Shown here: in pieces, positions 14,295 through 63,435 of the stretch
Numbering within the stretch: position 1 is the first letter of the stretch
How the letters are laid out: the number at the start of each line of letters is the position of its first letter
NCBI GenBank assembly: GCA_963662265.2
Contig: CAXXHA010000008.1
Location: 1 to 64,000 of the forward strand
Direction of reading: 5' to 3'
Length of the DNA: 64,000 bases
Origin: Spirochaetia bacterium
Lineage (GTDB): Bacteria > Spirochaetota > Spirochaetia > CADAEX01
Notes under the pieces: generated by a model
What the model was told of the DNA's origin: nothing
What the model saw: the letters and a program-made list of their open reading frames with translations, nothing else
Databases searched by the model: none
Position numbers and translations under genes: made by a program

Positions 14295-14340
14295 TATTAT
14301 AATTATTATTTATCAGAGCTGTTTAGTCAAAAAATATTTC

Positions 14341-14439: not shown

Positions 14440-14511
14440 ATACTCATTAAGCCCCCTACCCGGGTGCGGTATAATTACCGTATAACAATAATTCACTCTG
14501 GAGGAAGCTTA

Positions 14512-20539: not shown

Positions 20540-21280
20540 TTATACCCCCTTTTTCTCCTGAATTCTATATGAATCTCCCTCAAGGGAGAAAACATGCGCA
20601 TGATGTAAAAGCCTATCAAGCATTGCTGTTGTCATGATTTCATCACCCATCATTTCAGACCACTGATCAAAACCTTTATTTGAAGTAATTATTACTGACG
20701 ATCTTTCATAGAGTTCGCTGATAAGATTAAAAAAAAGATTGGCCTCTTTTCTGTCGATAGGCGTATAGCCTATTTCATCAATAATTAGTAACGAAGATCT
20801 GAGAATCCTGTTTATTCTGAATGAACTTGATCTCATAGTTTCCATTGTTTTCAACAGTTTTATTAGTGAAGTTATCCTTTCAAAACAGACAGTGTATCCG
20901 GCTTCAATTGCCTTGTACCCGAGAGCAATTGATAGATGTGTTTTCCCAAGGCCGGGAGGTCCAAAGAACATGATATTTTCAGATTTATCTATCCACCTGA
21001 AATCCTTGAGATTATTTAACTGTTCTTCAGTTATCCCTTTTATTCTTGAAAAATTGAATGTCTCAAGTTCCTTAATTACAGGAAAATGGGCACCTGTAAG
21101 ATTTCTATGAAGACGTCTTTCATTTCTGAAATGTACTTCTTCTGTAAGAAGGATGCTTAAAAAATCAAGATGAGATATTTTCTCCTTTGTTGCTTTTTCA
21201 AGTGCCTCATCAAGATTAACAGATATTCCTTTAAGCTTTAGACTATCAAGTATTCCTGTACAGTAATCAAAACAGCTCAT
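20540..21280 (-). CDS. istB: IS21 helper ATPase
   Basis: GPPGLGKTHL, LIIDEIGY, DRLLHH. Confidence 0.95.
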   Translation of the reverse strand: MSCFDYCTGILDSLKLKGISVNLDEALEKATKEKISHLDFLSILLTEEVHFRNERRLHRNLTGAHFPVIKELETFNFSRIKGITEEQLNNLKDFRWIDKSENIMFFGPPGLGKTHLSIALGYKAIEAGYTVCFERITSLIKLLKTMETMRSSSFRINRILRSSLLIIDEIGYTPIDRKEANLFFNLISELYERSSVIITSNKGFDQWSEMMGDEIMTTAMLDRLLHHAHVFSLEGDSYRIQEKKGV

Positions 21281-23271: not shown

Positions 23272-24096
23272 TTAATTCAGATTATATCCGAATTCTCTGG
23301 TTTTCATAATATTTTTCCAATGTGCTTCTCTTCTAATTATTATTTCATCATCAGTAATTGACGATCTTACTTCAAGTATTGAAAATTGATAATTATTTGC
23401 ATATTCAATTCCATTTTTTTCAATTACTTTTTTTAGATCAATATTATTTCCATGTCCATTTTTTGAATAATTTTTCCATCTATCCCAAAAAGCATTTTCC
23501 CCATATGCTGAACCAACATATAATTTTCCGTTTGTTTTATCAGTAATTAAATATACACCTTTTGTACTTGATAATGCACTTTTCCAAGATGCTTCTTCTT
23601 CATTAATTACTTCTTGTAATTCTTCATAGTTCAATAATAAATTTTCATATCCGGGAAAGGGTTCAATTTTATACGGTTTTTCAAGTAATTCGCTAATTTC
23701 AAAATTATTGATGTGTTTTTCTAGTAATAGATATGAAGCTCGAAAATCTTTATTAAATTTAATTATTAGTCGACCAATTAAATCTTTTTGTAACTCTGTT
23801 AAATTTGTCTTATATGAAAAATATTCTTTTTCTTTTGATTTATCATATTTTTTAGTTACATCCAATTTTTCATAAATACCGCCGTAGATCCAATAATTTG
23901 GTTTATAATAAATAAGTGATATAATATATTTTCTTTCAAAATTTTTATTATTCTGATATTCTTGCCATTCTTTGAATTCATTTCTTATTAATTTATATAA
24001 TGGTTCTTTTTTATTTAATCGACCTATAGCCATGTGGAGTTTGTATTCATCGGTTTTTTCTATTATTTCTGGGAAAATATGTTCGAATTTAACCAT
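23272..24096 (-). CDS. GIY-YIG nuclease cassette, copy 1
   Basis: GVYLITD..GKLYVGSA..R..E..N motifs. Confidence 0.9.
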   Translation of the reverse strand: MVKFEHIFPEIIEKTDEYKLHMAIGRLNKKEPLYKLIRNEFKEWQEYQNNKNFERKYIISLIYYKPNYWIYGGIYEKLDVTKKYDKSKEKEYFSYKTNLTELQKDLIGRLIIKFNKDFRASYLLLEKHINNFEISELLEKPYKIEPFPGYENLLLNYEELQEVINEEEASWKSALSSTKGVYLITDKTNGKLYVGSAYGENAFWDRWKNYSKNGHGNNIDLKKVIEKNGIEYANNYQFSILEVRSSITDDEIIIRREAHWKNIMKTREFGYNLN

Positions 24097-27328: not shown

Positions 27329-27461
27329 ACTAAAATACCTTTTGTATTAAACAGTACTCCCTTCACAAATATTAAAGGGATTAATTTACATATTTTTCTT
27401 AAATTCTATATTATTTTACTATATTTATTCGCTAGTCACTGGACTGCTCATTTCTGCCATA

Positions 27462-27650
27462 TAACGCCAAGTTGAGCTGCTCCGGCGGTGCCTGAGCGAA
27501 GCGAAGGATTGGCATGTGTTTTTGCAGTTATTCTTTGCTTTTAGAATAATATTTAAAATAAGTATTTCTTAGCTGCAAATCTTTAATAATTCTACTTTTT
27601 TTCCTGCAAAAAACCATGTCAAAGCCGGGGTCTGCTCCAACTTATTGTTA
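27462..27650 (-). repeat. Long attC (189 bp)
   Basis: attC ends with CCTGAGCGAAGCGAAGG arm and long AT-rich loop. Confidence 0.88.
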
Positions 27651-28048
27651 CATTCTAAATCCTCGTAAGATCAATTAGCAAGTTCTTTTTATCCATTTTT
27701 CAACCCAAATATATCCTGCAGATCTTAATTATTTTGCATTTTTTATGCAGGGAGTATACCAAAACATAATCCTTGGATTACCGTCACAATATTTTTCAGC
27801 TCGTTCTTTTTCGGCTGAAAAGCGCTTAGCTGTTTTCATTAAACAGTAATTTCTTTTATATTCGATAATAAAAGGCTAGCTACACAAAACTATACTTTAC
27901 CCTCTTTTGAAACGGGATTGAATCAAAACAAAATCGCTTTTCTGCCGAGTGGGTCTCAAGATGATGCATACAATCCTAAAAATATCTTTTTTATCACTTC
28001 TACCACAATATCGCCAGTTTTTACTGTTTCCAATAACTTTTGTGTATG
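27651..28048 (-). other. Gene-less cassette, family A
   Basis: No credible ORF; homologous to 28237, 32800 and 45465. Confidence 0.85.
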
Positions 28049-28236
28049 TAACGCCAAGTTGAGCTGCTCCGGCGGTGCCTGAGCGAAGCGAAGGATTGGC
28101 ATGTGTTTTTGCATTTATACTTTGCTGTTAGAAAAATATGTAAAATAAGTGTTTTTTAGCTGCATATTTTTAATAATTCTACTTTTTTTCCTGCAAAAAC
28201 CATGTCAAAGCCGGGGTCTGCTCCAACTTATTGTTA
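28049..28236 (-). repeat. Long attC (188 bp)
   Basis: Same architecture as 27462. Confidence 0.88.
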
Positions 28237-28638
28237 CATTCTAAATCCTCGTAAGATCAATTAGCAAGTTCTTTTTATCCATTTTTTAACCCAAATATAT
28301 CCTGCAGATCTTAATTATTTTGCATTTTTTATGCAGGGAGTATACCAAAACATAATCCTTGGATAACCGTCACAATATTTTTTCGGCTCGCTCTTTTTCG
28401 GCTGAAAAGCGCTTAGCTGTTTTTTCATTAAACAGTTATATCTTTTATTTTCGATTGTAAAAGGCTGTCCACACAAAACTATACTCTAACCTCTTTTTGA
28501 ATCTGGATTGAATCAAAACAAAATCGCTTTTCTGCCGAGTGGGTCTCAAGATGATGCATACAATCCTAAAAATATCTTTTTTATCACTTCTACCACAATA
28601 TCGCCAGTTTTTACTGTTTCCAATAACTTTTGTGTATG
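28237..28638 (-). other. Gene-less cassette, family A
   Basis: Near-identical to 45465-45866. Confidence 0.85.
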
Positions 28639-32377: not shown

Positions 32378-32615
32378 TTTTCTTCTTGAATCCAGACAAA
32401 TTCCCAATATCTTTCTACCTTTGTCTGGATTCAGGCATAATTCTCAAATATTTGAGTATTTTTAATCTATATTAGTAATACACTGGGAAAATTCATTCAT
32501 AATTCTTGAATATATTAATAAATAAAGTCCAGACAAATTCCAATATTTTCCTACTTCTATGGTCTGGACTAGGGTTTTGATAAAAAACGTCATTCACTCC
32601 CCCCGAAGGGGTACA

Positions 32616-32799
32616 TAACTCCCAAGTTGAGCTGCTCCGGTGGTTCCTGAAGCGAAGCTGAAGGATTGGCATGTGTTTTTGCTTATCATTCTGCATTAAA
32701 ACAAACGATTTGTATCAAATAATTGCTGCATTTTTTAATAATTTAACTTCTTCCTGCAAAAACCATGACAAAACCGGGGTCTGCTCCAACTTATTGTTA
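32616..32799 (-). repeat. Long attC (184 bp)
   Basis: Long class, arm CCTGAAGCGAAGCTGAAGG. Confidence 0.88.
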
Positions 32800-33204
32800 C
32801 ATACTAAATCCACTCAAGATCAATTAGCAAGTTCTTTTTCTACATTTTCCAACCAGAAAATATCCTGCAGATCTTTATAAATTCGCCATTTTTCAGCCTG
32901 GAGGATACCAAAACATAATTCTTGGATTATCGTCACATTATATTTTCGGCTCGCTCCAAATCGGCTGAAAAGCGCCTATTTTCTTTACTTCATTGGACAG
33001 TTTTATTTTTCATATTCGAGTGTCAAAGTGGCAGGCCACACTAACTATCCTCTACCCTCTTTTTGAATCGGGTTTTTTCAAGTACAACATATAAGCTTTT
33101 CTGCCGGGCGGGCCTCAAGATGATGCATACAATCCCAAATATTTTTTTCTTTACTCCACCAACTTTTTGTCAGTTTTACCGGTTTCCAATAACTTTTGTG
33201 TATG
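32800..33204 (-). other. Gene-less cassette, family A (diverged)
   Basis: Homologous to 27651; reading frames not conserved. Confidence 0.85.
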
Positions 33205-41052: not shown

Positions 41053-41877
41053 TTAATTCAGATTATATCCGAATTCTCTGGTTTTCATAATATTTTTCCA
41101 ATGTGCTTCTCTTCTAATTATTATTTCATCATCAGTAATTGACGATCTTACTTCAAGTATTGAAAATTGATAATTATTTGCATATTCAATTCCATTTTTT
41201 TCAATTACTTTTTTTAGATCAATATTATTTCCATGTCCATTTTTTGAATAATTTTTCCATCTATCCCAAAAAGCATTTTCCCCATATGCTGAACCAACAT
41301 ATAATTTTCCGTTTGTTTTATCAGTAATTAAATATACACCTTTTGTACTTGATAATGCACTTTTCCAAGATGCTTCTTCTTCATTAATTACTTCTTGTAA
41401 TTCTTCATAGTTCAATAATAAATTTTCATATCCGGGAAAGGGTTCAATTTTATACGGTTTTTCAAGTAATTCGCTAATTTCAAAATTATTGATGTGTTTT
41501 TCTAGTAATAGATATGAAGCTCGAAAATCTTTATTAAATTTAATTATTAGTCGACCAATTAAATCTTTTTGTAACTCTGTTAAATTTGTCTTATATGAAA
41601 AATATTCTTTTTCTTTTGATTTATCATATTTTTTAGTTACATCCAATTTTTCATAAATACCGCCGTAGATCCAATAATTTGGTTTATAATAAATAAGTGA
41701 TATAATATATTTTCTTTCAAAATTTTTATTATTCTGATATTCTTGCCATTCTTTGAATTCATTTCTTATTAATTTATATAATGGTTCTTTTTTATTTAAT
41801 CGACCTATAGCCATGTGGAGTTTGTATTCATCGGTTTTTTCTATTATTTCTGGGAAAATATGTTCGAATTTAACCAT
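41053..41877 (-). CDS. GIY-YIG nuclease cassette, copy 2
   Basis: Protein identical to 23272-24096. Confidence 0.9.
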   Translation of the reverse strand: MVKFEHIFPEIIEKTDEYKLHMAIGRLNKKEPLYKLIRNEFKEWQEYQNNKNFERKYIISLIYYKPNYWIYGGIYEKLDVTKKYDKSKEKEYFSYKTNLTELQKDLIGRLIIKFNKDFRASYLLLEKHINNFEISELLEKPYKIEPFPGYENLLLNYEELQEVINEEEASWKSALSSTKGVYLITDKTNGKLYVGSAYGENAFWDRWKNYSKNGHGNNIDLKKVIEKNGIEYANNYQFSILEVRSSITDDEIIIRREAHWKNIMKTREFGYNLN

Positions 41878-43515: not shown

Positions 43516-44679
43516 TTAATACTTATTATTATATTCTTCAACATATTTTTCTAAAAAATCTACCATATCTATTAATTCTTTAATTTCATATTCTTTAATT
43601 AACTCTATTGCTTTTTCCATATTTTCAAACTCTGACTTATCAAAAAAATTAATTCTACTTTCTTTATTTATAAATCCAGAATTTAGAATGTAATTAAATT
43701 TTTCTTTATACTCATTATTTAATTCTTCAATTTGATTTTCAGTCAATACATCTGAAAAATATGTTGATATCAATGTTAATAAATGAATAGCTTGTAGAAC
43801 AACTCTTAAAAGACTATTTGGATGTGATAATGTTCCATCATATCTAATTTCGCCATTATTGTTTTGGGCACTTGATATTCCTAGTAATAAACTATATGTC
43901 TTTATTGAATTTAGACATATTATTGAATTAGATTTAATTGTTTCTGAATAAGATTTTAAACCTCTGTATTCTCTATATTCTTTAGTATCAGGAGTATTTT
44001 TAATCATTGAACTATAAATCCATGTTACTGCAACCAAATCTGCAATTATTTCTAATGCACAAGATTTTGCAGGATTAGTAAGATTTTTTATATTACTAAT
44101 CGTATATACATGTGCAATTTCATGATAAGCTAAATGCATTGACATTAAATCGTAATCATTACCATATTCATTCATATCAAATACATCATGATGAAAATAA
44201 TTATAACTTGTTCTTATAGCATGTGCTAATCCTTTGTCGTTATATTCCTTAACAGCTAAATTAGCGCCATTAATAAAATATTTTATTTTTTCATATAATT
44301 GATTATCATTTAAATGTTTGACATAATTATTCTTTTTAAAGAAATAATTACCTACATATGATGTATATAAATATAAGAGTGTTGGTAACATTTCAGGTAT
44401 AATTATATCATAAGATTTTGGGCAACCATCATTATCATGATTAATTTTTATACAAGCATTTATAGCCCATGGGCTCATATTACATTTGTAACGATTATAA
44501 ATAACATTTAATTTTTCAGGTAATTCCTTGCTGTTTAAAACTTCTATACCAATTCTTAATATATTATATGACAATCTTTCAAAAGGAAAGATTTCATCTT
44601 TTTCTAAAGAAAACACAGAAGCAGGGATTTCAATTTTTGATATGTAATCTGATTCTATTGGTTTTCTTCTATTACACAT
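43516..44679 (-). CDS. HEXXH zinc metalloprotease-like protein (Lit/U49-like)
   Basis: YHEIAH...LEIIAD...SHP....R. Confidence 0.65.
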   Translation of the reverse strand: MCNRRKPIESDYISKIEIPASVFSLEKDEIFPFERLSYNILRIGIEVLNSKELPEKLNVIYNRYKCNMSPWAINACIKINHDNDGCPKSYDIIIPEMLPTLLYLYTSYVGNYFFKKNNYVKHLNDNQLYEKIKYFINGANLAVKEYNDKGLAHAIRTSYNYFHHDVFDMNEYGNDYDLMSMHLAYHEIAHVYTISNIKNLTNPAKSCALEIIADLVAVTWIYSSMIKNTPDTKEYREYRGLKSYSETIKSNSIICLNSIKTYSLLLGISSAQNNNGEIRYDGTLSHPNSLLRVVLQAIHLLTLISTYFSDVLTENQIEELNNEYKEKFNYILNSGFINKESRINFFDKSEFENMEKAIELIKEYEIKELIDMVDFLEKYVEEYNNKY

Positions 44680-44737
44680 ATTTATTTTCCTATTATTTTA
44701 TTATTTCAACACACATTAAATAATTTTTATTAACACA

Positions 44738-44922
44738 TAACGCCAAGTTGAGCTGCACCGGTATGCCTGAGCGAAGCGAAGGATTGGCATGTGTTTTTGC
44801 TTAATTTCTCTGCTTTAAAAACAGATCTGGAAGTAGTAAATAATTGCTGCAATTTTCGATAATTCTACTTTTTTTCCTGCAAAAAACATGACAAAACCGG
44901 GGTCTGCTCCAACTTTTTGTTA
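44738..44922 (-). repeat. Long attC (185 bp)
   Basis: Long class. Confidence 0.88.
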
Positions 44923-45276
44923 TATTCTAAATTCTCTTTTGTTTTTTTAACAACGCCAAAATAGTTCAAGTATCCAGACTTTCACAATTATATCATAAAC
45001 CTTTACGTGTTTCACTTTCAGAAACAAAAGGCCATTATTTTCTTCCTGCGCGGGCTCAGCGTGGGGAGTTGGCCCCATTTCCACGAATCGCGTGGGCAAT
45101 TATCGCCAAACTTCACCACCCTCTATCCCTGCCAGGGTCGTGGAAATGTCTACCCTAGATTGGACTGTCAGGGATCGCCAGGTAGCCAGGACACCAATAA
45201 TCCGGTCTGAACCAATTCCATCCAACTTTTCCCAAATTCAGCTACGTTTTACAGCTCCTCAAATTTTGGTGGAATA
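44923..45276 (-). other. Gene-less cassette, family B
   Basis: Appears identical to 61934-62287; related to 45972. Confidence 0.85.
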
Positions 45277-45464
45277 TAACGCCAAGTTGAGCTGCTCCGG
45301 CGGTGCCTGAGCGAAGCGAAGGATTGGCATGTGTTTTTGCATTTATACTTTGCTGTTAGAAAAATATGTAAAATAAGTGTTTTTTAGCTGCATATTTTTA
45401 ATAATTCTACTTTTTTTCCTGCAAAAACCATGTCAAAGCCGGGGTCTGCTCCAACTTATTGTTA
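45277..45464 (-). repeat. Long attC (188 bp)
   Basis: Matches 28049-28236. Confidence 0.88.
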
Positions 45465-45866
45465 CATTCTAAATCCTCGTAAGATCAATTAGCAAGTTCT
45501 TTTTATCCATTTTTTAACCCAAATATATCCTGCAGATCTTAATTATTTTGCATTTTTTATGCAGGGAGTATACCAAAACATAATCCTTGGATAACCGTCA
45601 CAATATTTTTTCGGCTCGCTCTTTTTCGGCTGAAAAGCGCTTAGCTGTTTTTTCATTAAACAGTTATATCTTTTATTTTCGATTGTAAAAGGCTGTCCAC
45701 ACAAAACTATACTCTAACCTCTTTTTGAATCTGGATTGAATCAAAACAAAATCGCTTTTCTGCCGAGAGGGTCTCAAGATGATGCATACAATCCTAAAAA
45801 TATCTTTTTTATCACTTCTACCACAATATCGCCAGTTTTTACTGTTTCCAATAACTTTTGTGTATG
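45465..45866 (-). other. Gene-less cassette, family A
   Basis: Near-identical to 28237-28638. Confidence 0.85.
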
Positions 45867-45971
45867 TAACGCCAAGTTGAGCTGCTTCGCAGTACCAAAA
45901 AGACATACTTCTTTGCAGCTGAAATAATCCTGAAAGTAAAAAGTCGCGAAGTCTGCTCCAACTTATTGTTA
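45867..45971 (-). repeat. attC (open-loop class)
   Basis: Similar to 42015. Confidence 0.85.
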
Positions 45972-46332
45972 TATTCGAAATTCTTTTTCAGTTTTCAAAA
46001 CAACACCAAAATAGATCAAGGATCAGGATTCTTCCAATTATATCATAATCCTATACGCGGTTCACTTACCGAAACAAATGGCCAGTTTTTTTCTTCCGGG
46101 TGGGCGAATGCAGGGCCGAGTTGGCCATTCCATTTCCACAAATCGCGCAGGCATTTATCGCCCAACTTCACAACCCTCTATCCCTGCCAGGCCTTGTGGA
46201 TATGTCTACCCAAGCTTGGACTGTCAGGGATCGCCAGGCAGCCAGGACACCAATATTCCGGTTTGAACCAACTTTATCCACTTTTTCCAGAATTCAGCTA
46301 CGTTTTACAGCTCCCCAAATTTTGGTGGAATA
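45972..46332 (-). other. Gene-less cassette, family B (diverged)
   Basis: Homologous to 44923 (GGACTGTCAGGGATCGCCAGG..GCCAGGACACCAAT). Confidence 0.82.
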
Positions 46333-46432
46333 TAACGCCCAGTTGAGCTGTTTGACTGTCCCGCAGGGTTGGCACGTGTTCTTGCTCTGCAAGAACCGTG
46401 ACAAAAGTCAAATCTGCTCCAACTTTTTGTTA
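46333..46432 (-). repeat. attC (standard)
   Basis: TAAC...GTTA palindrome. Confidence 0.92.
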
Positions 46433-46436
46433 TGTT

Positions 46437-47244
46437 CTAAAATTCTATACCCAATTGTATTATTTCATCAATTAATTCTATTTTCTTAATGTCAGTTTCT
46501 GTATTTTCCAGGAGACTAATACCTATTATTTTCTTTTGATTTTTTACTTCTTTGATTATTTCTATAACTTCTTCTATTTTCAAACCATTTTTACTCGGAC
46601 ATTTTACATTTTTATATATTGCTGGATCTAAAACATCTAAATCTATATGTATATAAACATATTCATTTTTATTATTTAATAATTCTGAAATATTTAAATT
46701 ATTTTTAATTTTTATATTTTCTTTAATAATGAATTCTTCTTCCGGTTTATCTAAATCTCTCGTACCTATTAATACAACGTCTTGCGGATTAATCTTATTG
46801 AATTTATATGAAATATCATTATTTGGTATTTCTTCGAGTAAAAATCTCAAAGACATACCATGAATATTTTTACTTGGAGAACTTTCAGGCGTATTTAAAT
46901 CTCCATGTGCATCAAACCATAATACATCTAACGTTTTATATTTATCTGAAAAATATGATACTATTGGGATTTCAATTCCACATCCCCCACCAACAGTAAG
47001 AATTTTATCTGGTTTTTCTTCATGTAATTTTTGAGATATTTTATTTAATTGGTTTTTTAATTGTTCTATAACCAAGAATATTTTTTTCTTTCAATAATTC
47101 AATATTCTGAGATATTTCAATTCTTTCAAAAACAACATTTGAATTTTCAATATATTCTTTTAAGGCACAAGCTCCACCATATAATTCTTTTAAAGCTCCT
47201 GAGACTTGCCATTGTGGAACAAATAGATTTAATTTTTTATTCAT
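46437..47244 (-). pseudogene. Arginase family protein, frameshifted near 47065
   Basis: PQWQ N-terminus in one frame; DAHGDLN and HIDLDVLDP in another. Confidence 0.82.
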
Positions 47245-47245
47245 A

Positions 47246-47593
47246 CTATCCCCAAAAACATCCATACTTATCTTCATCAATAATACTTAAAAAATCAGAT
47301 AGATCATCTACTTCTGGATTTGGTTCATATCCATGCCATTTCAAGTCAGATCGCATCCAAAATATTTTCCATATATCTTGAGTTCTTACATATGTTGCTT
47401 TTGCAATTTCAATATTTAGAATATTTTTTGGATTATCATATTGTGGTCTGATTTCATATATTTCTACACTCTGATTAGTTATTTTGTATGAAATATCTAA
47501 TTCCTTTCGAATGTTTTCTAGAGGTCTAATTTTTTCAATAAATTTATCTAATATTTGCTGATATTTTCTTAATTCGAACTCATTAAACGCCAT
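47246..47593 (-). CDS. DUF3024 family protein
   Basis: IAKATY...WKIFWMRSDLKWH.Y...DEDKYGCFWG. Confidence 0.85.
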   Translation of the reverse strand: MAFNEFELRKYQQILDKFIEKIRPLENIRKELDISYKITNQSVEIYEIRPQYDNPKNILNIEIAKATYVRTQDIWKIFWMRSDLKWHGYEPNPEVDDLSDFLSIIDEDKYGCFWG

Positions 47594-47679
47594 ATTTTCC
47601 TCTTAAATTCTCTATATTTTAATATGTATTTATTGATATTTCAATTTTTTTAACCATGCAATCCTACTCTAGTGGAACA

Positions 47680-47866
47680 TAACACCAAGTTGAGCTGCTC
47701 CGGTGTGCCTGAGCGAAGCGAAGGATTGGCATGTGTTTTTGCATTCTTTTCTTTGCTTTAAAGTAAAAACTGTAAGTTTCAAGTAACTGCTGTAATTCTT
47801 TTTTATTTCTACTTTTTTCCTGCAAAAAACCATGACAAAACCGGGGTCTGCTCCAACTTTTTGTTA
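47680..47866 (-). repeat. Long attC (187 bp)
   Basis: Long class. Confidence 0.88.
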
Positions 47867-47897
47867 TATTCTAAATCCTCGCAATGTCAAATAGCAA
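47863..47897 (-). promoter_or_regulatory. Putative sigma70 promoter(s) at the 3' end of a gene-less cassette
   Basis: Minus strand TTGACA-16-TATAAC overlapping TTGCTA-18-TAGAAT; conserved in sister cassettes. Confidence 0.6.
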
Positions 47898-48300
47898 GTT
47901 CTTTTTCCCCATTTTCCAACCCGAAGATATCATACAGATCTTCAATATTTCTATTCAAAACTGCCAGGCGATCATTTCGGCAGGGCTCACCGCCCAGACT
48001 TTTGCACCCCAATCGTTCGGCGATCCTCGGTAATGATCAAGCCCGTAAATTCCTACCCTATATTGGATGGCATCGGCGCTGGCCATTTCGCCAAAAAGAA
48101 GATCAATAATCCAATTGCTTTTCATAAATGAAGCAATAAGTGCGAAATGCCCCCGCCCAAAATTTCTTTCCCTAAATTGGCAGGCTCTGGAGGATGGCGG
48201 GCCTCAAAATGCTGCAAGCCATTTCCCAAAAATCCTTAATTTTTTAAGCGTTTACCAGTTTATTGGCAGTTTTTAAGGTTTCCGCTAACTTGTGTGAATA
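47867..48300 (-). other. Gene-less cassette, family C
   Basis: Shares both ends with family A; related to 59576. Confidence 0.82.
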
Positions 48301-48364
48301 TAACATCCATTTGAGTTGCGCCATCGCAGCAAAGCGAGAAGGCGTCAACTCCAAATGTTTGTTA
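48301..48364 (-). repeat. Short attC (64 bp)
   Basis: TAAC-CATTTGAGTTGCGCC...GGCGTCAACTCCAAATG-GTTA. Confidence 0.88.
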
Positions 48365-50053
48365 TCTATATTTTTCTAAACATTTTTTTACAAATTCTTT
48401 CGATTTTGATATTTCATTATCATTTAAATCATATTTTAATGAATCAATTTTTTTTGTTACATTTTTTATATTTTCAATTATCTTTTTTTCATCTTTCAAA
48501 ATATCATATATTTTTTGACAATACTTTGTGGATTTTTTTGATTCAAATGAAGGACATTTTGAATTATCAATTTCATGCCTTACCATCGTTAATAAATGAT
48601 ATTTTATTTTTTTATATTTTTTATCTATTCTTTTATTTTTAAATAATGATTCAATTTTAAATATTGAATACGAAGCAACATAATAAGGAAACATTTCGTG
48701 ATTATCTATAAATAATTTATCTCCGAATTCTGAAAAAAGAGTACCGAAATATCTTGTTGCCATATCCGGCTTATCATAATATAGACTTGCAATTGCTTTG
48801 ATTTGAGTAGTTTTATCAATAATTCTTTTTCTCTCAACACCTTTGTTATTATACTGTTTTGAACGTCTTTCATAATATAAACGTTCTTCACCTGAAAAAG
48901 TAGTATAATAATCTTCTAACCTTTTTTGAAAATTCGAGAAAGCAATAAGATCTTGCTCTTTTACTTCTGTTTGTCTATTTGTTGATCTGATAACTCTTGA
49001 TGTAACTTCTTCATTCCCACTAATAATAAGCTTGATAGGTACTTTTACACTTGTATTTATGAGTTCTTTATTTTCAAAAAGTACATGTGATGTCTGGCAG
49101 CCATTAATAATTTGGTAGTTTGTAATTGTAAAAGTATCTCTAGTCGTCCGTAGATCTTCAGCAACAATTGTTATTCCATTATTCAAAATAGCAAAAGAAT
49201 CTTTATTACTTGAATTTATAGTTTCAGCTATTTCGCCATTAACTTTATTTACACCTTGAAAATCTCTTACATTATCATAAAAAACATTGGATAAAAGAGA
49301 TCCATCTTCATCTGTCATTATTTTTATAATTGATGAAGCATCAAGCACACCTATATATGCCTCTTTAACATTTTGTATTTCTGGTAAAGTAACTCTTCGT
49401 GTAAAATCAAAAGACTTTTCAACTGCTTGTCCAATTTTTTTATAACGATGTTGTAAATCAGCGGCATCAATTAAATCAAAATTTATTTTAGAAAAAATAT
49501 TTTCATCTGCTATATTTTTTTTAACACCTTCTTTAACTGCTAAAACATTTTGATCATTTTCATCATTACCCAAAGTTATATAATATAAACTACAAACAGG
49601 ATTTTCTTTTAATTCTGATATTCTATTAACAAAACAATTAAATAATTCAATTTTTTCTAGAGCAAGATCTGACCATTTCAATGTTTGTTTTTCAGCAATA
49701 AAATCATTTACAGCAAAACCAAAATTCCCAATTTCTTTTGAATCGAACTTAGCAGATGTTTTGGATTGAACAAATACTATTTCAGCAGAACATTTTTTAT
49801 GCTGCTCCAAAAAATCCTCGAGTTCATCCTTTGAATCAATTAATTGTTTATTTAATAATAATGCAAAACCATCTATACCAATAGTACCATTAGTTCCAAT
49901 ATTAATTCTTTCGATATCAAAACGATATTCTGTTTTTGTTTCAATCACTGTATAATTTGAAAAATGTTCAAATAATAAAGATTCATCATCAATAGTTTCG
50001 AATCCAAAGCTTTTTTTAAAATCAGTTACAAAACTTTTAGTTACCCTATCCAT
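48362..50053 (-). CDS. AIPR family protein
   Basis: FYDNVRDFQG, LNNGITIV, QIINGCQT, TNRQT, YYERR. Confidence 0.92.
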   Translation of the reverse strand: MDRVTKSFVTDFKKSFGFETIDDESLLFEHFSNYTVIETKTEYRFDIERINIGTNGTIGIDGFALLLNKQLIDSKDELEDFLEQHKKCSAEIVFVQSKTSAKFDSKEIGNFGFAVNDFIAEKQTLKWSDLALEKIELFNCFVNRISELKENPVCSLYYITLGNDENDQNVLAVKEGVKKNIADENIFSKINFDLIDAADLQHRYKKIGQAVEKSFDFTRRVTLPEIQNVKEAYIGVLDASSIIKIMTDEDGSLLSNVFYDNVRDFQGVNKVNGEIAETINSSNKDSFAILNNGITIVAEDLRTTRDTFTITNYQIINGCQTSHVLFENKELINTSVKVPIKLIISGNEEVTSRVIRSTNRQTEVKEQDLIAFSNFQKRLEDYYTTFSGEERLYYERRSKQYNNKGVERKRIIDKTTQIKAIASLYYDKPDMATRYFGTLFSEFGDKLFIDNHEMFPYYVASYSIFKIESLFKNKRIDKKYKKIKYHLLTMVRHEIDNSKCPSFESKKSTKYCQKIYDILKDEKKIIENIKNVTKKIDSLKYDLNDNEISKSKEFVKKCLEKYR

Positions 50054-50836: not shown

Positions 50837-51123
50837 CGTTAAAACAACTTTTTAAATACTCATTTTAAGTATATTTTCTGGTATTTCTATCGTCGAAGAC
50901 GATTTTCCTTATATTTTTTTCCCTAATTTGTTCTACCACTGGGGTTTTTAAGTGTTCAATTTATTTGTTTAATTTCTTCATTTTAACTAAAATTATTAGT
51001 TTTTTCTAAAATCCGCCTGAAAGGCCGTGTAACGCCCAGTTGAGCTGTTTGACTGCCCCGTGGAAATGGCAAGTCATTTTCCCCACATTTAGGAAATTAA
51101 AAATCCCCCACCTGCAGAAAAAA

Positions 51124-51864
51124 TTATACCCCCTTTTTCTCCTGAATTCTATATGAATCTCCCTCAAGGGAGAAAACATGCGCATGATGTAAAAGCCTAT
51201 CAAGCATTGCTGTTGTCATGATTTCATCACCCATCATTTCAGACCACTGATCAAAACCTTTATTTGAAGTAATTATTACTGACGATCTTTCATAGAGTTC
51301 GCTGATAAGATTAAAAAAAAGATTGGCCTCTTTTCTGTCGATAGGCGTATAGCCTATTTCATCAATAATTAGTAACGAAGATCTGAGAATCCTGTTTATT
51401 CTGAATGAACTTGATCTCATAGTTTCCATTGTTTTCAACAGTTTTATTAGTGAAGTTATCCTTTCAAAACAGACAGTGTATCCGGCTTCAATTGCCTTGT
51501 ACCCGAGAGCAATTGATAGATGTGTTTTCCCAAGGCCGGGAGGTCCAAAGAACATGATATTTTCAGATTTATCTATCCACCTGAAATCCTTGAGATTATT
51601 TAACTGTTCTTCAGTTATCCCTTTTATTCTTGAAAAATTGAATGTCTCAAGTTCCTTAATTACAGGAAAATGGGCACCTGTAAGATTTCTATGAAGACGT
51701 CTTTCATTTCTGAAATGTACTTCTTCTGTAAGAAGGATGCTTAAAAAATCAAGATGAGATATTTTCTCCTTTGTTGCTTTTTCAAGTGCCTCATCAAGAT
51801 TAACAGATATTCCTTTAAGCTTTAGACTATCAAGTATTCCTGTACAGTAATCAAAACAGCTCAT
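51124..51864 (-). CDS. istB: IS21 helper ATPase
   Basis: Identical to 20540-21280. Confidence 0.95.
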   Translation of the reverse strand: MSCFDYCTGILDSLKLKGISVNLDEALEKATKEKISHLDFLSILLTEEVHFRNERRLHRNLTGAHFPVIKELETFNFSRIKGITEEQLNNLKDFRWIDKSENIMFFGPPGLGKTHLSIALGYKAIEAGYTVCFERITSLIKLLKTMETMRSSSFRINRILRSSLLIIDEIGYTPIDRKEANLFFNLISELYERSSVIITSNKGFDQWSEMMGDEIMTTAMLDRLLHHAHVFSLEGDSYRIQEKKGV

Positions 51865-53423
51865 AAAGCACCTCCTAAAAGACTTACAAGTGAGGTGTAG
51901 TAACTTAAATCCCTTTTCTTTACTTCTATGTTTTTATTCTCATGTTTTACAGCTTTTATTCCTGTAAGAAGCTGTGGCAGAATATCCGGATAATTTTCAG
52001 TTTCACAGCTTCTTACATAAAGATAAGACTCTTCAAAATTCCTTGCAGATAGTGTTCCGTTTTCAATGCATAAATCTGCAGTTTTTGCTATTAACTTATC
52101 ATCAGGATTTGAGTTTATGAAAGCATAAAGCTCGCGCTGCTGATCTCTGTAATACCTGCTGTATTTTTTGTAATTCTGATCAACATATTGTTTCCATGAG
52201 TTACTGCTAAATCTGTTCTTTAATTTTTTGATAACTTCATCGGGCTTGGAATCATAATTCCTGAAATGATTATGTTTGGTTATTTTTTTCCCCTTTATCG
52301 GTGAGATTTTGTGCCTGGCAATCTCTTCTCCATCTATTTTGTCATAGATAAAAAGGTCTGTATCTGTTTGGTAAATCCAGACAGTTTTTTTTCTGAACCT
52401 GTTAGGGACAGAGTAAAATGAAGATGAAACACTTATCAATGATTTACTATTTACTTCCCTTGATTCTTTATTTATGATGCTTTCCCTTCTGAAAATAGAC
52501 GGCTTTAATTTTTTAAAATGTGGAATCTCTTTAAGCAAAGCTTCTTGAGGAATTATTCCAGTTGCCTGGCATATTTTACCGTTAGCTCTTCTTGAAAGCC
52601 AATTATTTAATGCCTCCTGTATTTGATCAAAGGATGTGAAATGTCTTGCTGAAAAGAAACTGCTTTTGATGAATTTCACAAAGTTTTCGACTTTACCTTT
52701 GCTCTCAGGGTCTGCTTTTCTGCAGACATACATCTTAAACCCCTGCTCATCCTTGAAGGCTTTAAATTCTTTTGTATACTTAATATCTCCGCTGTTTTCT
52801 TTAACAACCATGACTTTGTCCTGATCAATCACGATTTCTTCAGGTACCCCTCCTATTATTTCAAAGGTATCAAGTAAATGATTTATCACATCTATGGATT
52901 TAAACGGCCTCTTCTGTACTGCTGCATACTTGAATCTGCTTACAGATAGAATGACTCCAAAGATATATACTTTCTCACCGGTTTCTATTTCAGTTTCTCC
53001 GAAATCAAGCTGTAGTTGTTTTCCATGTGGAAGTTCTTCAACCGGTGTATAGATTCTCTTGTATTCGTAATTATCTACTTCTCCTGTTTTCTTTAAGAAA
53101 ATGAGATAATTTCTCAAAGTCCTTTCAGTGCCGGGAAGTTCTCCATATTTTTCTTCAAGAACATCATAGATTGATGAAGTGTATATTTTATTGTTATTTA
53201 AATTAAAAATATTCAGTATTTCATCTTTGAAAGGAGCAAAAATCTTTTCCTTTTCTACACTGTTTATCTGGTATTCAAGATACTCTGCTTCCGACATTTC
53301 AAAGTATTTTCTAACTGTTTTTCTGTCGATTTTTAATTCTCTGGATATTTTCCTTTTTGAATATCCTCTATTCTTGAAAACTCTTATTTTTTGGTACATA
53401 TTCATAGTAATCATTTGAGTCAT
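51861..53423 (-). CDS. istA: IS21 transposase
   Basis: Identical to 21277-22839. Confidence 0.95.
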   Translation of the reverse strand: MTQMITMNMYQKIRVFKNRGYSKRKISRELKIDRKTVRKYFEMSEAEYLEYQINSVEKEKIFAPFKDEILNIFNLNNNKIYTSSIYDVLEEKYGELPGTERTLRNYLIFLKKTGEVDNYEYKRIYTPVEELPHGKQLQLDFGETEIETGEKVYIFGVILSVSRFKYAAVQKRPFKSIDVINHLLDTFEIIGGVPEEIVIDQDKVMVVKENSGDIKYTKEFKAFKDEQGFKMYVCRKADPESKGKVENFVKFIKSSFFSARHFTSFDQIQEALNNWLSRRANGKICQATGIIPQEALLKEIPHFKKLKPSIFRRESIINKESREVNSKSLISVSSSFYSVPNRFRKKTVWIYQTDTDLFIYDKIDGEEIARHKISPIKGKKITKHNHFRNYDSKPDEVIKKLKNRFSSNSWKQYVDQNYKKYSRYYRDQQRELYAFINSNPDDKLIAKTADLCIENGTLSARNFEESYLYVRSCETENYPDILPQLLTGIKAVKHENKNIEVKKRDLSYYTSLVSLLGGAL

Positions 53424-53626
53424 TCCTGGTAGTTTTTGTCGTGATTACATACTAAGGTTTGACTCTTTTTTTTTCCTATAGGGTGGGGAATTTTATTTTC
53501 CATCCTATGGGGATTTCATGTTACCATTTCCACCCCGCTAGGGTTGGCGTGTAAATTGCGTATGCAATTTGCATGACAAAAGGCAAAATCTGCTCCAACT
53601 GTTTGTTAAACGCTAAATTGCTGTTC

Positions 53627-54452
53627 TTAATTCATATTATATCCAAATTCTCGCGTTTTCATAATATTTTTCCAATGTGCTTCTCTTCGAATTATAATTT
53701 CATCATCAGTAATTGATGATCTTACTTCAAGAATTGAAAATTGATAATTATTTGCATATTCAATTCCTTTTTTTTCAATTACTTTTTTTAGATCAATATT
53801 ATTTCCATGTCCATTTTTTTGAGTAATTTTTCCATCTATCCCAAAAAGCATTTTCCCCATATGCTGAACCAACATATAATTTACCGTTTGTTTTATCAGT
53901 AATTAAATATACACCTTTTGTACTTGATAATGCACTTTTCCAAGATGCTTCTTCTTCATTAATTACTTCTTGTAATTCTTCATAGTTCAATAATAAATTT
54001 TCATATCCGGGAAAGGGTTCAATTTTATACGGTTTTTCAAGTAATTCGCTAATTTCAAAATTATTGATGTGTTTTTCTAACAATAGATATGAAGCACGAA
54101 AATCTTTATTAAATTTAATTATTAGTCGACCAATTAAATCTTTTTGTAATTCTGTTAAAATAGTCTTATATGAAAAATATTCTTTTTCTTTCGATTTATC
54201 ATATTTTTTAGTTACATCCAATTTTTCATAAATACCACCGTAGATCCAATAATTCGGTTTATAATAAATAAGCGATATAATATATTTTCTTTCAAAATTT
54301 TTATTATTCTGATATTCTTGCCATTCTTTAAATTCATTTCTAATTAATTTATATAATGGTTCTTTTTTATTAAATCGACCTATAGCCATATGGAGTTTGC
54401 ATTCATCGGCTTTATTAATTATTTCTGGGAAAATATTTTCGAATTTAATCAT
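53627..54452 (-). pseudogene. GIY-YIG nuclease, diverged allele with frameshift
   Basis: T7 at 53814-53820 versus T6 in the intact copies. Confidence 0.85.
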
Positions 54453-58249: not shown

Positions 58250-59293
58250 TCATAAAAATTCAACCAATTTATTGTCTTGTTTATTCTTAGATTCTCTAAT
58301 TTCGATGTATGATTCATCAAAAGATATATAAAGATTTAAAAGAATATCAAATATTTCATTATTACTTTGATGCTTCAAATTATCAATAAAATCATTAAAT
58401 GTTGTATAACTATAACTATTAACAATATTATATTTTACTGATAATATTGTTATTATTTCATCGATTTGTTCTATGAATAATTTTATATAAATAGTTTGAT
58501 CTATTTTTGATATTTCTGATAAAACACCATTTTTCCATTTTGCTTTAAAAATAGGGATATTATATTTTTTTGCTATTATACTTATTGGAATAGTACTTTC
58601 ATTAGATACTTTATAACCAACAATAATTCCAAACAAACAATCACTTATATCAATATAGGTTTCTTCACATTTATTATCTTCAACAAGTATTCTGAATTCT
58701 GATTCACTTTGCCAATCTTTATTTTTTAAATAAAATATTTCATACTTGTTTAATCTAATATATTTCTTATACTCATTACTAATAATTTTATTATCTTTTA
58801 TATGATTTTTTTGTATTGTAAGATATTGTTCAATTGTATTTAAAGAATATTTAATTTTATCACAACGGCAAAAATCTCTATATTTATTTTTCATTTTTTG
58901 AATTATTTTATCTTTTTTAAATAATAAACAAGCTCCAGAATGGCTATCACCATATTGTTCCCACATCCTGGGTAAATTATACGGTTCATTATTTTCGGTA
59001 TTACAAAAGCAACTTATTTTAATATTTTCTTTTAAAATATCACTAATCTCACTATTTAGTGATTTCTTAAAATTATCATATATTATCTGCGGCCATTCAA
59101 TTTCTGTATTATTATTATTTTCAGTTAAATATTTATGTGGTAGTTTAAAATGATATTTATGATTTTCAAATGGATCATTACTTTTATATATATTATTCAA
59201 TAATATCTGTTTTTGTTTCAATATTAAATTAAAGCATTTATCCAAACTTGTATAATGTGCAATTATTTCAATATCATCTTCATTTCCTATCAT
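58250..59293 (-). CDS. DUF2971 family protein
   Basis: HYTS, NDPFE, CF, MWEQYG..HSGACL, K..DW..ESEFR. Confidence 0.85.
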   Translation of the reverse strand: MIGNEDDIEIIAHYTSLDKCFNLILKQKQILLNNIYKSNDPFENHKYHFKLPHKYLTENNNNTEIEWPQIIYDNFKKSLNSEISDILKENIKISCFCNTENNEPYNLPRMWEQYGDSHSGACLLFKKDKIIQKMKNKYRDFCRCDKIKYSLNTIEQYLTIQKNHIKDNKIISNEYKKYIRLNKYEIFYLKNKDWQSESEFRILVEDNKCEETYIDISDCLFGIIVGYKVSNESTIPISIIAKKYNIPIFKAKWKNGVLSEISKIDQTIYIKLFIEQIDEIITILSVKYNIVNSYSYTTFNDFIDNLKHQSNNEIFDILLNLYISFDESYIEIRESKNKQDNKLVEFL

Positions 59294-59384
59294 AATACTA
59301 CCTTTTTAATTATCAATATTATAACTTTTAAAATCTACATGTAAATATCTTTTACATCGTTATCCGCTATTTTTATTATAAATA

Positions 59385-59575
59385 TAACGCCCAGTTGAGC
59401 TGCTCCGGTGTGCCTGAAGCGAAGCTGAAGGATTGGCATGTCTTTTTGCATTTATATGTTTGCTTTTAAAACATCAACTTAAGGATTCAAATAACTGCTA
59501 CAATTTTTTTTATAACTCTTACTTTTTCTATGCAAAAAGCATGACTAAACCGGGGTCTGCTCCAACTGATTGTTA
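59385..59575 (-). repeat. Long attC (191 bp)
   Basis: Long class. Confidence 0.88.
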
Positions 59576-59948
59576 TATTCTAAACCCTCGCAAGGTCAAT
59601 TAGCAAGGCAAGATTTATCTCTTAACGACCCGCCTATACGCAGTTGCTCTTTCAATAATTCGAAACAAAACAGCCAGGAGATCATTTCCTGACAGGCCAT
59701 ACCTCCCCAATTTTTTTGACCCTAACTCGAGGGGCATATCTTGGAAATGATCAAGCCCAAGATTTTACTATTCATGAGTGGGCAGGCATTGTCAGGCCCA
59801 TTTCACACCCCAGATTTTCTTTCCCTAATGGTCGGCTGCGCAGGATGAAGGGGCTTAAGACGCTGCAAACAATCCCCAAAAAAATCTTTTTCAAACTGTT
59901 TACCCGTTTATTGAGTGTTTTAATGGTTTCCACTAACTTTTGTGAATA
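59576..59948 (-). other. Gene-less cassette, family C
   Basis: Shares AATGATCAAGCCC and both ends with 47867. Confidence 0.82.
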
Positions 59949-60018
59949 TAACGCCCATTTGAGTTGCGCCATCGCAGAAGCGAAGCGCCGAGAAGGCGTC
60001 AACTCCAAATGATTGTTA
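59949..60018 (-). repeat. Short attC (70 bp)
   Basis: Short class. Confidence 0.88.
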
Positions 60019-60591: not shown

Positions 60592-61730
60592 TTCGATATA
60601 ATCTCTTGTTGAATATCTTAAATATTTCTAATAATTCATTATGTTGAAGAAATAATATCTCCATCATTCTATTAAAAGTTATCAAATCATTTTCATAGGC
60701 CATGAAGCATTTATTCAAATAAATCATTGACAATCCATTTTCAAGTATATGAGAGATTCTTTCATAACTTTTTGTATTGATATATGAAGTTAATTCTGGA
60801 TCAACTTTTTCACTTTTATTGATCCAAGTTTTTTCTAATTCTTTATATTTTGAAGAATCAATTTTGTTGTTATTATTTAGGGCAATTAATAATGTTTTTG
60901 GATTTGCAAGTATTTTTTTTGACCAAAATATTAATTTTTCCCTTGTCCAGACTTTATTTTCGGGGATGCTTTCAATTATATCAGTTGGACACAAATAATA
61001 AGATGAAAAAGTATTTGCTCTTATCTCTTTTAAATCACTCTTATCCCATTTTAGAAAAACTAATATTAATATCATCTTTCTTATCAAATATTGCATGACC
61101 AGCTTCATGTGCAGCTGTAAATCTTTGTCGATAAACATCTTCTGTATAATTTACAATTATACAATCACCAGCAATAGGATGATTAATGTAAATTCCAGAT
61201 ATTTTACTGTTTTCTAACTTTTTTCGATAAATCTTTATACCAATTTTTCTAAAATCTTGATAAACATTTAAACTCAATTCATTTCTTTTATAATTGAAAT
61301 GTTTTCTTAGTGACTCTGCGGCTTTTATCCCATGTTCTTTAAAATAAGTACCTTGAGGAAGAAATTCATATTTAGATTGTTTAATACCTAGTCTTTCATC
61401 TAAATAGTGTTCACATTCAGCTGTATATAAAACTTCTTGTATTGTCCATTTATCAATTTTGCTTAATTCACCTTCAAATTTTCTAAATAATTTATCAGTT
61501 TGCTCAAAAACTGATTTTTTTTGATTAGATATAAAATAATTATAGTCACATTTAAAAAAGTCAGCAATTATTAATATTTCATCTCCTGAAGGCTCTAATT
61601 TGCCATTTTCTATTTGTTTTAGTCTTTCTATTTCAATTCCAGTATTTTGTGATAAATCTTGTTCCGATACGGAAAATAAATTACGGTATTGAGTTATTTT
61701 ATTCCCTAAGGTTTTTAATTCAATTGCCAC
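60584..61730 (-). pseudogene. XRE HTH + ImmA/IrrE metallopeptidase, frameshifted near 61048
   Basis: N-terminal HTH, RQRFTAAHEAGH, then EIRANTFS in another frame. Confidence 0.85.
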
Positions 61731-61748
61731 AAAATCTCCTTATCTTCA

Positions 61749-61933
61749 TAACGCCAAGTTGAGCTGCACCGGTATGCCTGAGCGAAGCGAAGGATTGGCA
61801 TGTGTTTTTGCTTAATTTCTCTGCTTTAAAAACAGATCTGGAAGTAGTAAATAATTGCTGCAATTTTCGATAATTCTACTTTTTTTCCTGCAAAAAACAT
61901 GACAAAACCGGGGTCTGCTCCAACTTTTTGTTA
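61749..61933 (-). repeat. Long attC (185 bp)
   Basis: Matches 44738-44922. Confidence 0.88.
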
Positions 61934-62287
61934 TATTCTAAATTCTCTTTTGTTTTTTTAACAACGCCAAAATAGTTCAAGTATCCAGACTTTCACAATT
62001 ATATCATAAACCTTTACGTGTTTCACTTTCAGAAACAAAAGGCCATTATTTTCTTCCTGCGCGGGCTCAGCGTGGGGAGTTGGCCCCATTTCCACGAATC
62101 GCGTGGGCAATTATCGCCAAACTTCACCACCCTCTATCCCTGCCAGGGTCGTGGAAATGTCTACCCTAGATTGGACTGTCAGGGATCGCCAGGTAGCCAG
62201 GACACCAATAATCCGGTCTGAACCAATTCCATCCAACTTTTCCCAAATTCAGCTACGTTTTACAGCTCCTCAAATTTTGGTGGAATA
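61934..62287 (-). other. Gene-less cassette, family B
   Basis: Duplicate of 44923-45276. Confidence 0.85.
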
Positions 62288-62407: not shown

Positions 62408-63232
62408 TTAATTCAGATTATATCCGAATTCTCTGGTTTTCATAATATTTTTCCAATGTGCTTCTCTTCTAATTATTATTTCATCATCAGTAATTGACGA
62501 TCTTACTTCAAGTATTGAAAATTGATAATTATTTGCATATTCAATTCCATTTTTTTCAATTACTTTTTTTAGATCAATATTATTTCCATGTCCATTTTTT
62601 GAATAATTTTTCCATCTATCCCAAAAAGCATTTTCCCCATATGCTGAACCAACATATAATTTTCCGTTTGTTTTATCAGTAATTAAATATACACCTTTTG
62701 TACTTGATAATGCACTTTTCCAAGATGCTTCTTCTTCATTAATTACTTCTTGTAATTCTTCATAGTTCAATAATAAATTTTCATATCCGGGAAAGGGTTC
62801 AATTTTATACGGTTTTTCAAGTAATTCGCTAATTTCAAAATTATTGATGTGTTTTTCTAGTAATAGATATGAAGCTCGAAAATCTTTATTAAATTTAATT
62901 ATTAGTCGACCAATTAAATCTTTTTGTAACTCTGTTAAATTTGTCTTATATGAAAAATATTCTTTTTCTTTTGATTTATCATATTTTTTAGTTACATCCA
63001 ATTTTTCATAAATACCGCCGTAGATCCAATAATTTGGTTTATAATAAATAAGTGATATAATATATTTTCTTTCAAAATTTTTATTATTCTGATATTCTTG
63101 CCATTCTTTGAATTCATTTCTTATTAATTTATATAATGGTTCTTTTTTATTTAATCGACCTATAGCCATGTGGAGTTTGTATTCATCGGTTTTTTCTATT
63201 ATTTCTGGGAAAATATGTTCGAATTTAACCAT
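62408..63232 (-). CDS. GIY-YIG nuclease cassette, copy 3
   Basis: Protein identical to 23272-24096. Confidence 0.9.
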   Translation of the reverse strand: MVKFEHIFPEIIEKTDEYKLHMAIGRLNKKEPLYKLIRNEFKEWQEYQNNKNFERKYIISLIYYKPNYWIYGGIYEKLDVTKKYDKSKEKEYFSYKTNLTELQKDLIGRLIIKFNKDFRASYLLLEKHINNFEISELLEKPYKIEPFPGYENLLLNYEELQEVINEEEASWKSALSSTKGVYLITDKTNGKLYVGSAYGENAFWDRWKNYSKNGHGNNIDLKKVIEKNGIEYANNYQFSILEVRSSITDDEIIIRREAHWKNIMKTREFGYNLN

Positions 63233-63369
63233 TATTTTTCCTTATTTAAATTTTTTCTCTATCTTACATAATTATTGCTATTCAATATTTATTCATTTTT
63301 TATCAAAATTTAAGTAATTTTTTATGCAAAAATATTCTTTTGAGTTACAATAATAACTATGATGCCGTT

Positions 63370-63435
63370 TAACGCCCATTTGAGTTGCGCCATCGCTGGC
63401 GCAGCCGAGAAGGCGTCAACTCCAAATGATTGTTA
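63370..63435 (-). repeat. Short attC (66 bp)
   Basis: Short class. Confidence 0.88.

Follow-up and report, generated by a model that had tools for sequence, protein, structure and literature searches.

Eight gene-less cassettes in the 64,000-nucleotide stretch of Spirochaetia DNA that we analyzed (the window) close in long attC sites of about 190 bp, and in each of them the same sigma70-like motif lies on the minus strand at a single fixed offset from the R'' box. We put the probability that this motif is a working promoter reading through the attC into the next cassette at roughly 45%; RNA polymerase binding, the start position, and the read-through are what we infer from the letters of the DNA.

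Chromosomal Integron Array and Its Long attC Sites

A minus-strand cassette array of a chromosomal integron spans the window from at least position 64,000 down to about 14,340, with 35 attC sites recovered by pattern search. Its sites have an R'' of the form RYYYAAC and an R' of the form GTTRRRY, and the first bases of each cassette are complementary to its own R''. Of 34 comparisons, 29 show an R'' whose reverse complement is identical to the R' of the attC before it (30 if a 1-nt offset is allowed), and the match holds for all eight long sites. Because this complementarity is the signature of cassettes cut at G|TT, it fixes both cassette orientation and borders. Among the four leftover mismatches, three pairs enclose insertion-sequence genes and the other is the degenerate last site. 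The array is a sedentary chromosomal integron. Its head lies beyond position 64,000, and none of the 75 ORFs scanned in the window gave a Pfam match to an IntI-type tyrosine recombinase. Housekeeping genes (plsY-like, fakA/degV-like, fhs, and trpR) occupy the region below 14,300. Many of the cassette genes are candidate anti-phage genes.

The attC sites fall into size classes of about 70, 106, and 190 bp. Nine of the 34 cassettes are without a gene (no minus-strand ORF of at least 60 aa); eight of these nine close in an attC of the 190-bp class, which within this array occurs on gene-less cassettes only. The long sites are as follows.

47677..47869, minus strand: long attC, 193 bp, from R'' ATATAAC to R' GTTATGT
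61746..61936, minus strand: long attC, 191 bp
59382..59578, minus strand: long attC, 197 bp
45274..45467, minus strand: long attC, 194 bp
44735..44925, minus strand: long attC, 191 bp
32614..32802, minus strand: long attC, 189 bp, with a 1-nt indel in the R' region
28046..28239, minus strand: long attC, 194 bp
27459..27653, minus strand: long attC, 195 bp

Their architecture is that of the array's 106-bp sites with the apical loop grown to about 80 nt; the site at 47677..47869 also has a side hairpin on its 3' arm. The arms are near-invariant among copies. The consensus fold is an imperfect hairpin of 42 pairs, three of them with compensatory changes, and the bottom strand folds as DNA with −27.9 kcal/mol (z −2.8). 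Because identical family B copies with exact borders sit between different neighbors, we regard the long attC as recombination-competent. In their R''/R' and L''/L' stems, unpaired bases, hairpin, and G|TT borders, these sites resemble canonical attC sites with a large variable terminal structure, such as the Vibrio cholerae repeats, but they differ from them in total length, in loop size, and in forming a class confined to gene-less cassettes. The range commonly quoted for attC sites in general is 57–141 bp. For Treponema, sites of 63–132 bp are given in the relevant passage of Wu et al. (PMC3607928).

A Promoter-like Motif at a Fixed Distance from R''

An earlier note on this DNA had described paired hexamers directly before the attC of the gene-less cassettes. 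The sequences it named occur where it had placed them, every one on the minus strand.

47863..47897, minus strand: TTGCTA-18-TAGAAT (match 47868-47897) overlapping TTGACA-16-TATAAC, cassette c48299
59572..59606, minus strand: TTGCTA-18-TAGAAT (match 59577-59606) with TTGACC-16-TATAAC, cassette c59947
45461..45495, minus strand: motif, family A copy (match 45466-45495), cassette 45865-45276
28233..28267, minus strand: motif, family A copy (match 28238-28267), cassette 28637-28048
27647..27681, minus strand: motif, family A copy (match 27652-27681), cassette 28047-27461
32796..32830, minus strand: variant TTGCTA-18-TAGTAT, cassette 33203-32616; also present in L001, from another Spirochaetia genome
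44919..44953, minus strand: family B, TTGTTA-18-TAGAAT with an A-rich spacer, cassette 45275-44737
61930..61964, minus strand: family B, TTGTTA-18-TAGAAT, second copy, cassette 62286-61748, body 100% identical to the first

The strict pattern TTGCTA-N18-TAGAAT has five exact matches, all on the minus strand, against 0.03 expected. The wider pattern TTGYTA-N18-TAGWAT-RTAAC adds the two family B copies (44919-44953 and 61930-61964) and the TAGTAT variant (32796-32830); its eight minus-strand matches coincide exactly with the eight long attC sites and compare with none in 100 shuffles, an excess that mostly reflects repetition rather than eight independent events, since the copies are paralogues of one cassette group. 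In all eight, the −10-like hexamer ends 2 nt ahead of the AAC of R''. Within the last 60 nt of the cassette, the motif is the best-scoring promoter-like site in six of the eight long-attC cassettes. The 16-spaced alternative, TTGAC(A/C)-N16-TATAAC, has two matches (47863-47890 and 59572-59599), and its "−10" TATAAC is the R'' box itself.

A weaker copy near 45972 was likewise borne out; it reads TTGTTT-19-TCGAAT and belongs to c46331, the gene-less cassette with a normal attC, in which both hexamers are lost. Outside the window, a scan of genome contigs with the 5' arm of the long attC as query returned one locus, L001 (Spirochaetia, contig OY764868.1), and this sole related copy in another genome also carries the motif. 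This locus and the published Treponema integrons agree with a probable spirochaete host. Two cassettes used as queries found no match in a plasmid collection.

Two other interpretations of the region were set aside by eye. A sigma54 reading of the GG...TTGC upstream of the −35 has a spacing of 13–15 rather than 12, and cassette 33203 has no GG. An extension of pairing between the −10 region and the start of the cassette reaches 9 bp in c48299 and fails in family A.

Promoter Grade, Hexamer Conservation, and the attC Flank

Judged by score, the motif is ordinary. TTGCTA (4/6) and TAGAAT (5/6) give 9/12, with a suboptimal 18-nt spacer that lies within the 17 ± 1 nt of sigma70 promoters. Sites of at least this grade number 137 per 20 kb versus 116 ± 12 in shuffled sequence, and in a second comparison 136 versus 131 ± 12. 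Nor does the score set the gene-less cassettes apart under the comparison that the earlier note had named as a refuting one: within the last 60 nt, 8 of 27 other cassette ends reach at least 9/12 and two reach 10. Promoter-like sites right before genes of the array score higher, at 10–11/12 with 16–17 nt spacing, for example, before the ORFs starting at 35610, 31525, 59293, and 47593.

As a conserved element, the motif stands out in part. The claim that the hexamers persist while the spacer changes is confirmed across five lineages aligned from R'' without gaps. Their hexamers are invariant at 10 of 12 columns, their spacers at 5 of 18, and the stretch upstream of the motif at 1 of 38 (p = 0.008 by Fisher's test, calculated post hoc). 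Between family B and the others, the −35 and −10 hexamers keep 5/6 and 5–6/6 positions, the spacer 7–10/18, and the upstream stretch 5–9/38. Among the four lineages other than family B, 11/12 hexamer and 11/18 spacer columns are invariant by eye. The contrast, tested post hoc, rests mainly on one deep split, that between family B and the rest. The positions retained include the TTG of the −35 and T1, A2, and T6 of the −10, also in the TAGTAT variant. This selective retention is what a promoter should show.

Half of the "−10" can be put down to the attC, and part of its conservation is possibly linked to that site instead: TAGAAT shares its final two bases with the start of R'', and TTTAG recurs at normal sites. 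The flank 5' of R'' in 22 non-redundant normal attC sites is A-rich and then reads ATT(T/A)A(G/A). Three of these 22, at unrelated coding cassettes (62388, 46431, and 42118), have an exact TTTAG at the matching offset, where about 0.04 would be expected. TAGA may thus be a generic feature of the attC flank that becomes TAGAAT only where R'' starts with AT.

These observations bear on a different account, in which the motif is not a promoter at all: it would be conserved within a recently shared, recombining block composed of the cassette end and the long attC, partly as generic R'' flank, and its sigma70 likeness would be a chance product of AT-rich DNA. Sites of equal grade that are as common as in shuffles and present at other cassette ends, the flank consensus and TTTAG at normal sites, and the final AT borrowed from R'' all suit such a block, as do the near-invariant attC arms that adjoin the motif. 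Six of the eight window copies (the three of family A, 33203, 48299, and 59947) form one group with L001 in which the spacer is largely conserved too, and conservation is found at both cassette ends rather than at the 3' end alone. Against this account, the −35 forms an island of identity (5/6) past a poorly kept half of the spacer (4/11, by eye) and beside upstream sequence that cannot be aligned (5–9/38), which counts against a simple decay of homology away from the attC. The flanks of normal attC sites show no conservation at the −35 distance. On balance, we consider this explanation somewhat unlikely.

As a separate observation on normal sites, positions −9 to −1 before R'' tend toward AAATT(T/A)A(G/A)N (e.g., at 58197, 54689, 36871, and 33304), with A in 18 of 22 at two positions; in the cases checked, this flank is not the stop codon of an ORF.

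Content of the Gene-less Cassettes

The eight cassettes that close in long attC sites measure 539–621 bp and have no minus-strand ORF of at least 60 aa. By blastn, cassette bodies fall into two groups with no mutual similarity. One, whose members are mosaics of each other, comprises the three family A copies together with 33203, 48299, and 59947; the other comprises family B (two copies) and 46331. Despite this lack of similarity, family B retains TTGTTA and TAGAAT at an unchanged spacing. Both groups have similar first ~35 nt and similar last ~36 nt before R''. Two cassettes illustrate the mosaic and the normal-attC forms.

47679..48299, minus strand: gene-less cassette c48299, 621 bp, a mosaic whose 5' 144 nt resemble c59947 and whose 3' 79 nt resemble family A
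45866..46331, minus strand: gene-less cassette c46331, 84% identical to family B, with a normal 105-bp attC and the decayed motif

Copying is precise at the level of whole cassettes. The two family B bodies are identical throughout (100%) and a pair of family A copies nearly so (99.7%), which indicates that the cassettes are still mobilized in their present form. Conserved blocks at the 5' end (35–140 nt) and the 3' end (~80–100 nt) surround a divergent center, and a promoter at the 3' end leaves the conserved 5' 35–140 nt unexplained.

Those blocks would fit a different noncoding role, for instance as a protein-binding site or an RNA (small or antisense), with the 3' block as one part of the element. 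The center of family B is GC-rich within an AT-rich array, the plus strand of the cassette bodies folds slightly better than shuffles (z −1.61 and −2.04), and three family A copies have a terminator-like hairpin on the plus strand. That hairpin, however, is by eye seemingly not conserved in the 33203 lineage, folds of the cassette strand are unremarkable (z −0.47 and −0.50), and the copies differ by indels with no obvious compensatory pattern. Rfam gave no match at the gathering score over the whole window, and a search of 44700-48400 at relaxed E-value returned only two subthreshold hits at chance level, to snoRNA and miRNA models. No tRNA or tmRNA was found. We consider such a role improbable.

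That the cassettes are decayed protein-coding cassettes with their conserved ends as leftovers is very improbable. Open stretches do exist (c48299 has one of 82 aa, and c46331 has one of 157 aa on its plus strand), and some copies share a short peptide-like similarity by eye in the first 100 nt. A six-frame comparison, however, found no open frame shared among copies: c48299 and c59947 are separated by 2 + 2 nt indels, and a 64-aa frame that crosses the attC of c48299 is interrupted in the remaining copies. When 20 open frames of at least 45 aa, taken from six of the nine gene-less cassettes, were compared with Pfam, none matched at E < 0.01. In the candidate peptide, every difference seen by eye that separates family A from 33203 is non-synonymous, and near-identical copy pairs are present.

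Gene-less cassettes also occur side by side. Three in tandem (45866-46331, 45276-45865, and 44737-45275) lie directly upstream of a 387-aa gene, and a second tandem, a pair, occupies 28637-27461. The conserved 5' block (…GTTTCC(A/G)NTAACTTTTGTG…) lies at 48239-48331, 59887-59979, and 27987-28079. On the plus strand, the block also contains a weak outward promoter-like site (TTGnnn-17-TAACTT, in two copies) that faces the upstream attC; it illustrates the ease with which promoter-like motifs are found in this array.

Downstream Genes and the Proposed Read-Through

If the motif is a promoter, RNA polymerase would begin inside R'' or immediately after it, copy the entire long attC into a structured 5' leader, and continue into the following cassette. 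Such continuation is proposed because the two downstream stretches inspected show no terminator after the attC. For the same reason, a transcript started at the motif would be a leader rather than a discrete small RNA; the small-RNA variant offered in the earlier note finds no backing in this, in the lack of an Rfam match, or in the unremarkable fold z-scores. In c59947, but by eye in none of the other copies, a terminator lies just upstream of the motif. The effect of the motif would be greatest for neighbors that have no promoter of their own, namely, the first two of the following features.

61041..61730, minus strand: ImmA/RmrA-like gene (HTH + M78 peptidase) in a promoterless cassette, with start GTG 61730 and ribosome-binding site AAGGAG
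43516..44679, minus strand: 387-aa gene with start ATG 44679, ~58 nt after the long attC; weak local Lit match
61998..62026, minus strand: stronger promoter-like site of family B, GTGAAA-17-TATAAT, with a TGn extended −10, 10/12; also at 44987-45015

The start assigned to the ImmA-like gene proved right, together with its ribosome-binding site, and lies ~19 nt into the cassette. For the gene that had been called Lit-like, the start position relative to the attC holds, and the identity does not: its score of 24 bits compares with a cut-off of 274, so that it is not a Lit member. Of six coding cassettes placed after a long attC, only these two fit the note's further point that some have little room for a promoter. 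Three of the six have a site of their own of at least 10/12. The 5' gaps after the long attC are 17, 57, 85, 90, 132, and 282 nt and are no shorter than at other cassettes. With n = 6, gene-less cassettes show no visible preference for positions before promoterless cassettes.

Four cassettes that follow gene-less cassettes match PADLOC models of anti-phage defense: 47246-47593, PDC-S43 (E 1.8e-50); 58250-59293, PDC-S31 (1e-14); 61041-61730, RmrA-like HTH + M78 peptidase (2.4e-18); and 43516-44679, a weak Lit-motif match.

Both promoterless neighbors follow family B. There, the TGnTATAAT site lies ~65 nt upstream of the motif and is kept in all three members of the lineage, with a GTGAAC version in c46331 at 46037-46065. 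Judging from these letters, the main promoter of family B may be this upstream site instead of the motif.

A bolder version of the promoter reading, which we regard as distinctly improbable, treats the 30-nt motif and the ~190-bp attC as one mobile unit, a recombination site with a built-in promoter from which transcription would start inside R''. The long hairpin would then be the 5' leader of any cassette that lands downstream, a portable and possibly structure-regulated restart point. In excised circles or tandem copies, transcription from this promoter would cross the attC and enter the conserved 5' block of the cassette itself. Such read-through could explain both the conservation of the two ends and the greatest amplification in the array (eight copies and a related ninth, of 34 cassettes).

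Comparison with Known Systems

Insertion sequences have outward-facing promoters at their edges that activate adjoining DNA. The cassettes proposed here would likewise be mobile units with an edge promoter; they differ in that they move by IntI/attC recombination rather than transposition and form no hybrid promoter.

The closest precedents are gene-less cassettes of other integrons. In oral Treponema, ORF-less cassettes have promoter activity in gusA/lacZ reporter assays in E. coli, with MMB37 active on the sense strand and TMB4 on both, and the sections of that report describing them propose that they drive neighboring cassettes as a "genetic clutch" (Tansirichaiya, Mullany, and Roberts 2019, PMC6557892). 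On that description, the two systems are alike in being spirochaete-type chromosomal integrons with ORF-less cassettes to which the same role is ascribed; the Treponema cassettes are reporter-active, whereas the motif described here is known from sequence alone. The BPROM boxes in Supplementary Table S1 of PMC6557892 contain neither TAGAAT nor TTGCTA, which marks them as a different sequence family, and its Results and Discussion give no description of a long attC or of a motif abutting R''.

In Vibrionaceae, most of 29 gene-less cassettes were sense-active (8/10, 3/4, and 11/13, plus all from V. fischeri) according to the relevant passages of Blanco et al. (2024, PMC11014356). A promoter set upstream of an attC drove GFP 295-fold in that work, and one transcription start fell inside an attC. 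The superintegron cassettes described there are similar in having no ORF and in size (491–666 bp there, 539–621 bp here), and their sense promoters read through their own attC into the next cassette, as may happen here. The host phylum differs, as does the length of the attC sites, which are 101–127 bp in those passages and ~190 bp here. Their transcription starts are scattered and unpredictable from sequence, whereas one motif recurs here at a single R'' offset in eight copies. Predictions by BPROM and De Novo DNA disagreed with the measured cassette activity, and spotting promoter cassettes from sequence was found impossible, on the account given in the same passages (PMC11014356).

The idea of promoter cassettes is thus already in print. 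What is particular to this array is a fixed motif at one R'' offset and an attC of ~190 bp, found on gene-less cassettes only and in eight copies. The earlier note's picture of mobile promoter cassettes stands as regards the lack of a conserved ORF, the precise copying, and the published sense activity of gene-less cassettes; its identification of this motif as the promoter goes further than these points carry it.

In a large chromosomal integron, dozens of genes lack a promoter of their own and sit at a distance from the one on the platform; the expression of the distal ones is under active study. If the motif works as a promoter, this array would be an unusually clean case, with a sequence-defined promoter tied to a recognizable attC class and copied eight times, so that promoter cassettes of this kind could be recognized from sequence. 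If it is inactive, it would be a warning that the attC core and its flank can create promoter-like hexamers.

Additional Features of the Array

The third attC class, of ~70 bp with arms CATTTGGAGTTGA / CAACTCAAATGG, is found at 63369-63434, 59948-60017, and 48300-48363; two of these three sites lie directly before the gene-less cassettes c59947 and c48299.

An IS110-family transposase gene (Pfam DEDD_Tnp_IS110 + Transposase_20) at 14340-15429 of the window abuts an attC with a disrupted R'' and marks the distal end of the array. A near-identical IS110/attC junction (…GGGGGCTTAATGAGTATCAATCAG…) occurs at 1348-2585 of L001, in the other Spirochaetia genome. The arrangement is like that of the IS1111 group, whose members target attC sites. 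An IS21-type element (IstA-like, 520 aa, and IstB, 246 aa) is present twice, at 51029-53607 and 20540-22839, and one copy interrupts an attC, with R'' at 53607 and R' at 51029.

A cassette encoding a 274-aa GIY-YIG protein is present three times (62408-63232, 41053-41877, and 23272-24096), with a diverged remnant near 53506-54452. In PADLOC, the protein has a full-length match to the UzuA model (E 3e-64), and GAAATTTAGC stands immediately 5' of R'' at the attC of each copy. Outside the array, formate-tetrahydrofolate ligase is split into two overlapping ORFs, 2953-3657 and 3626-4717 (Pfam FTHFS 2-193 and 203-555), which reflects either a frameshifted gene or a sequence error.
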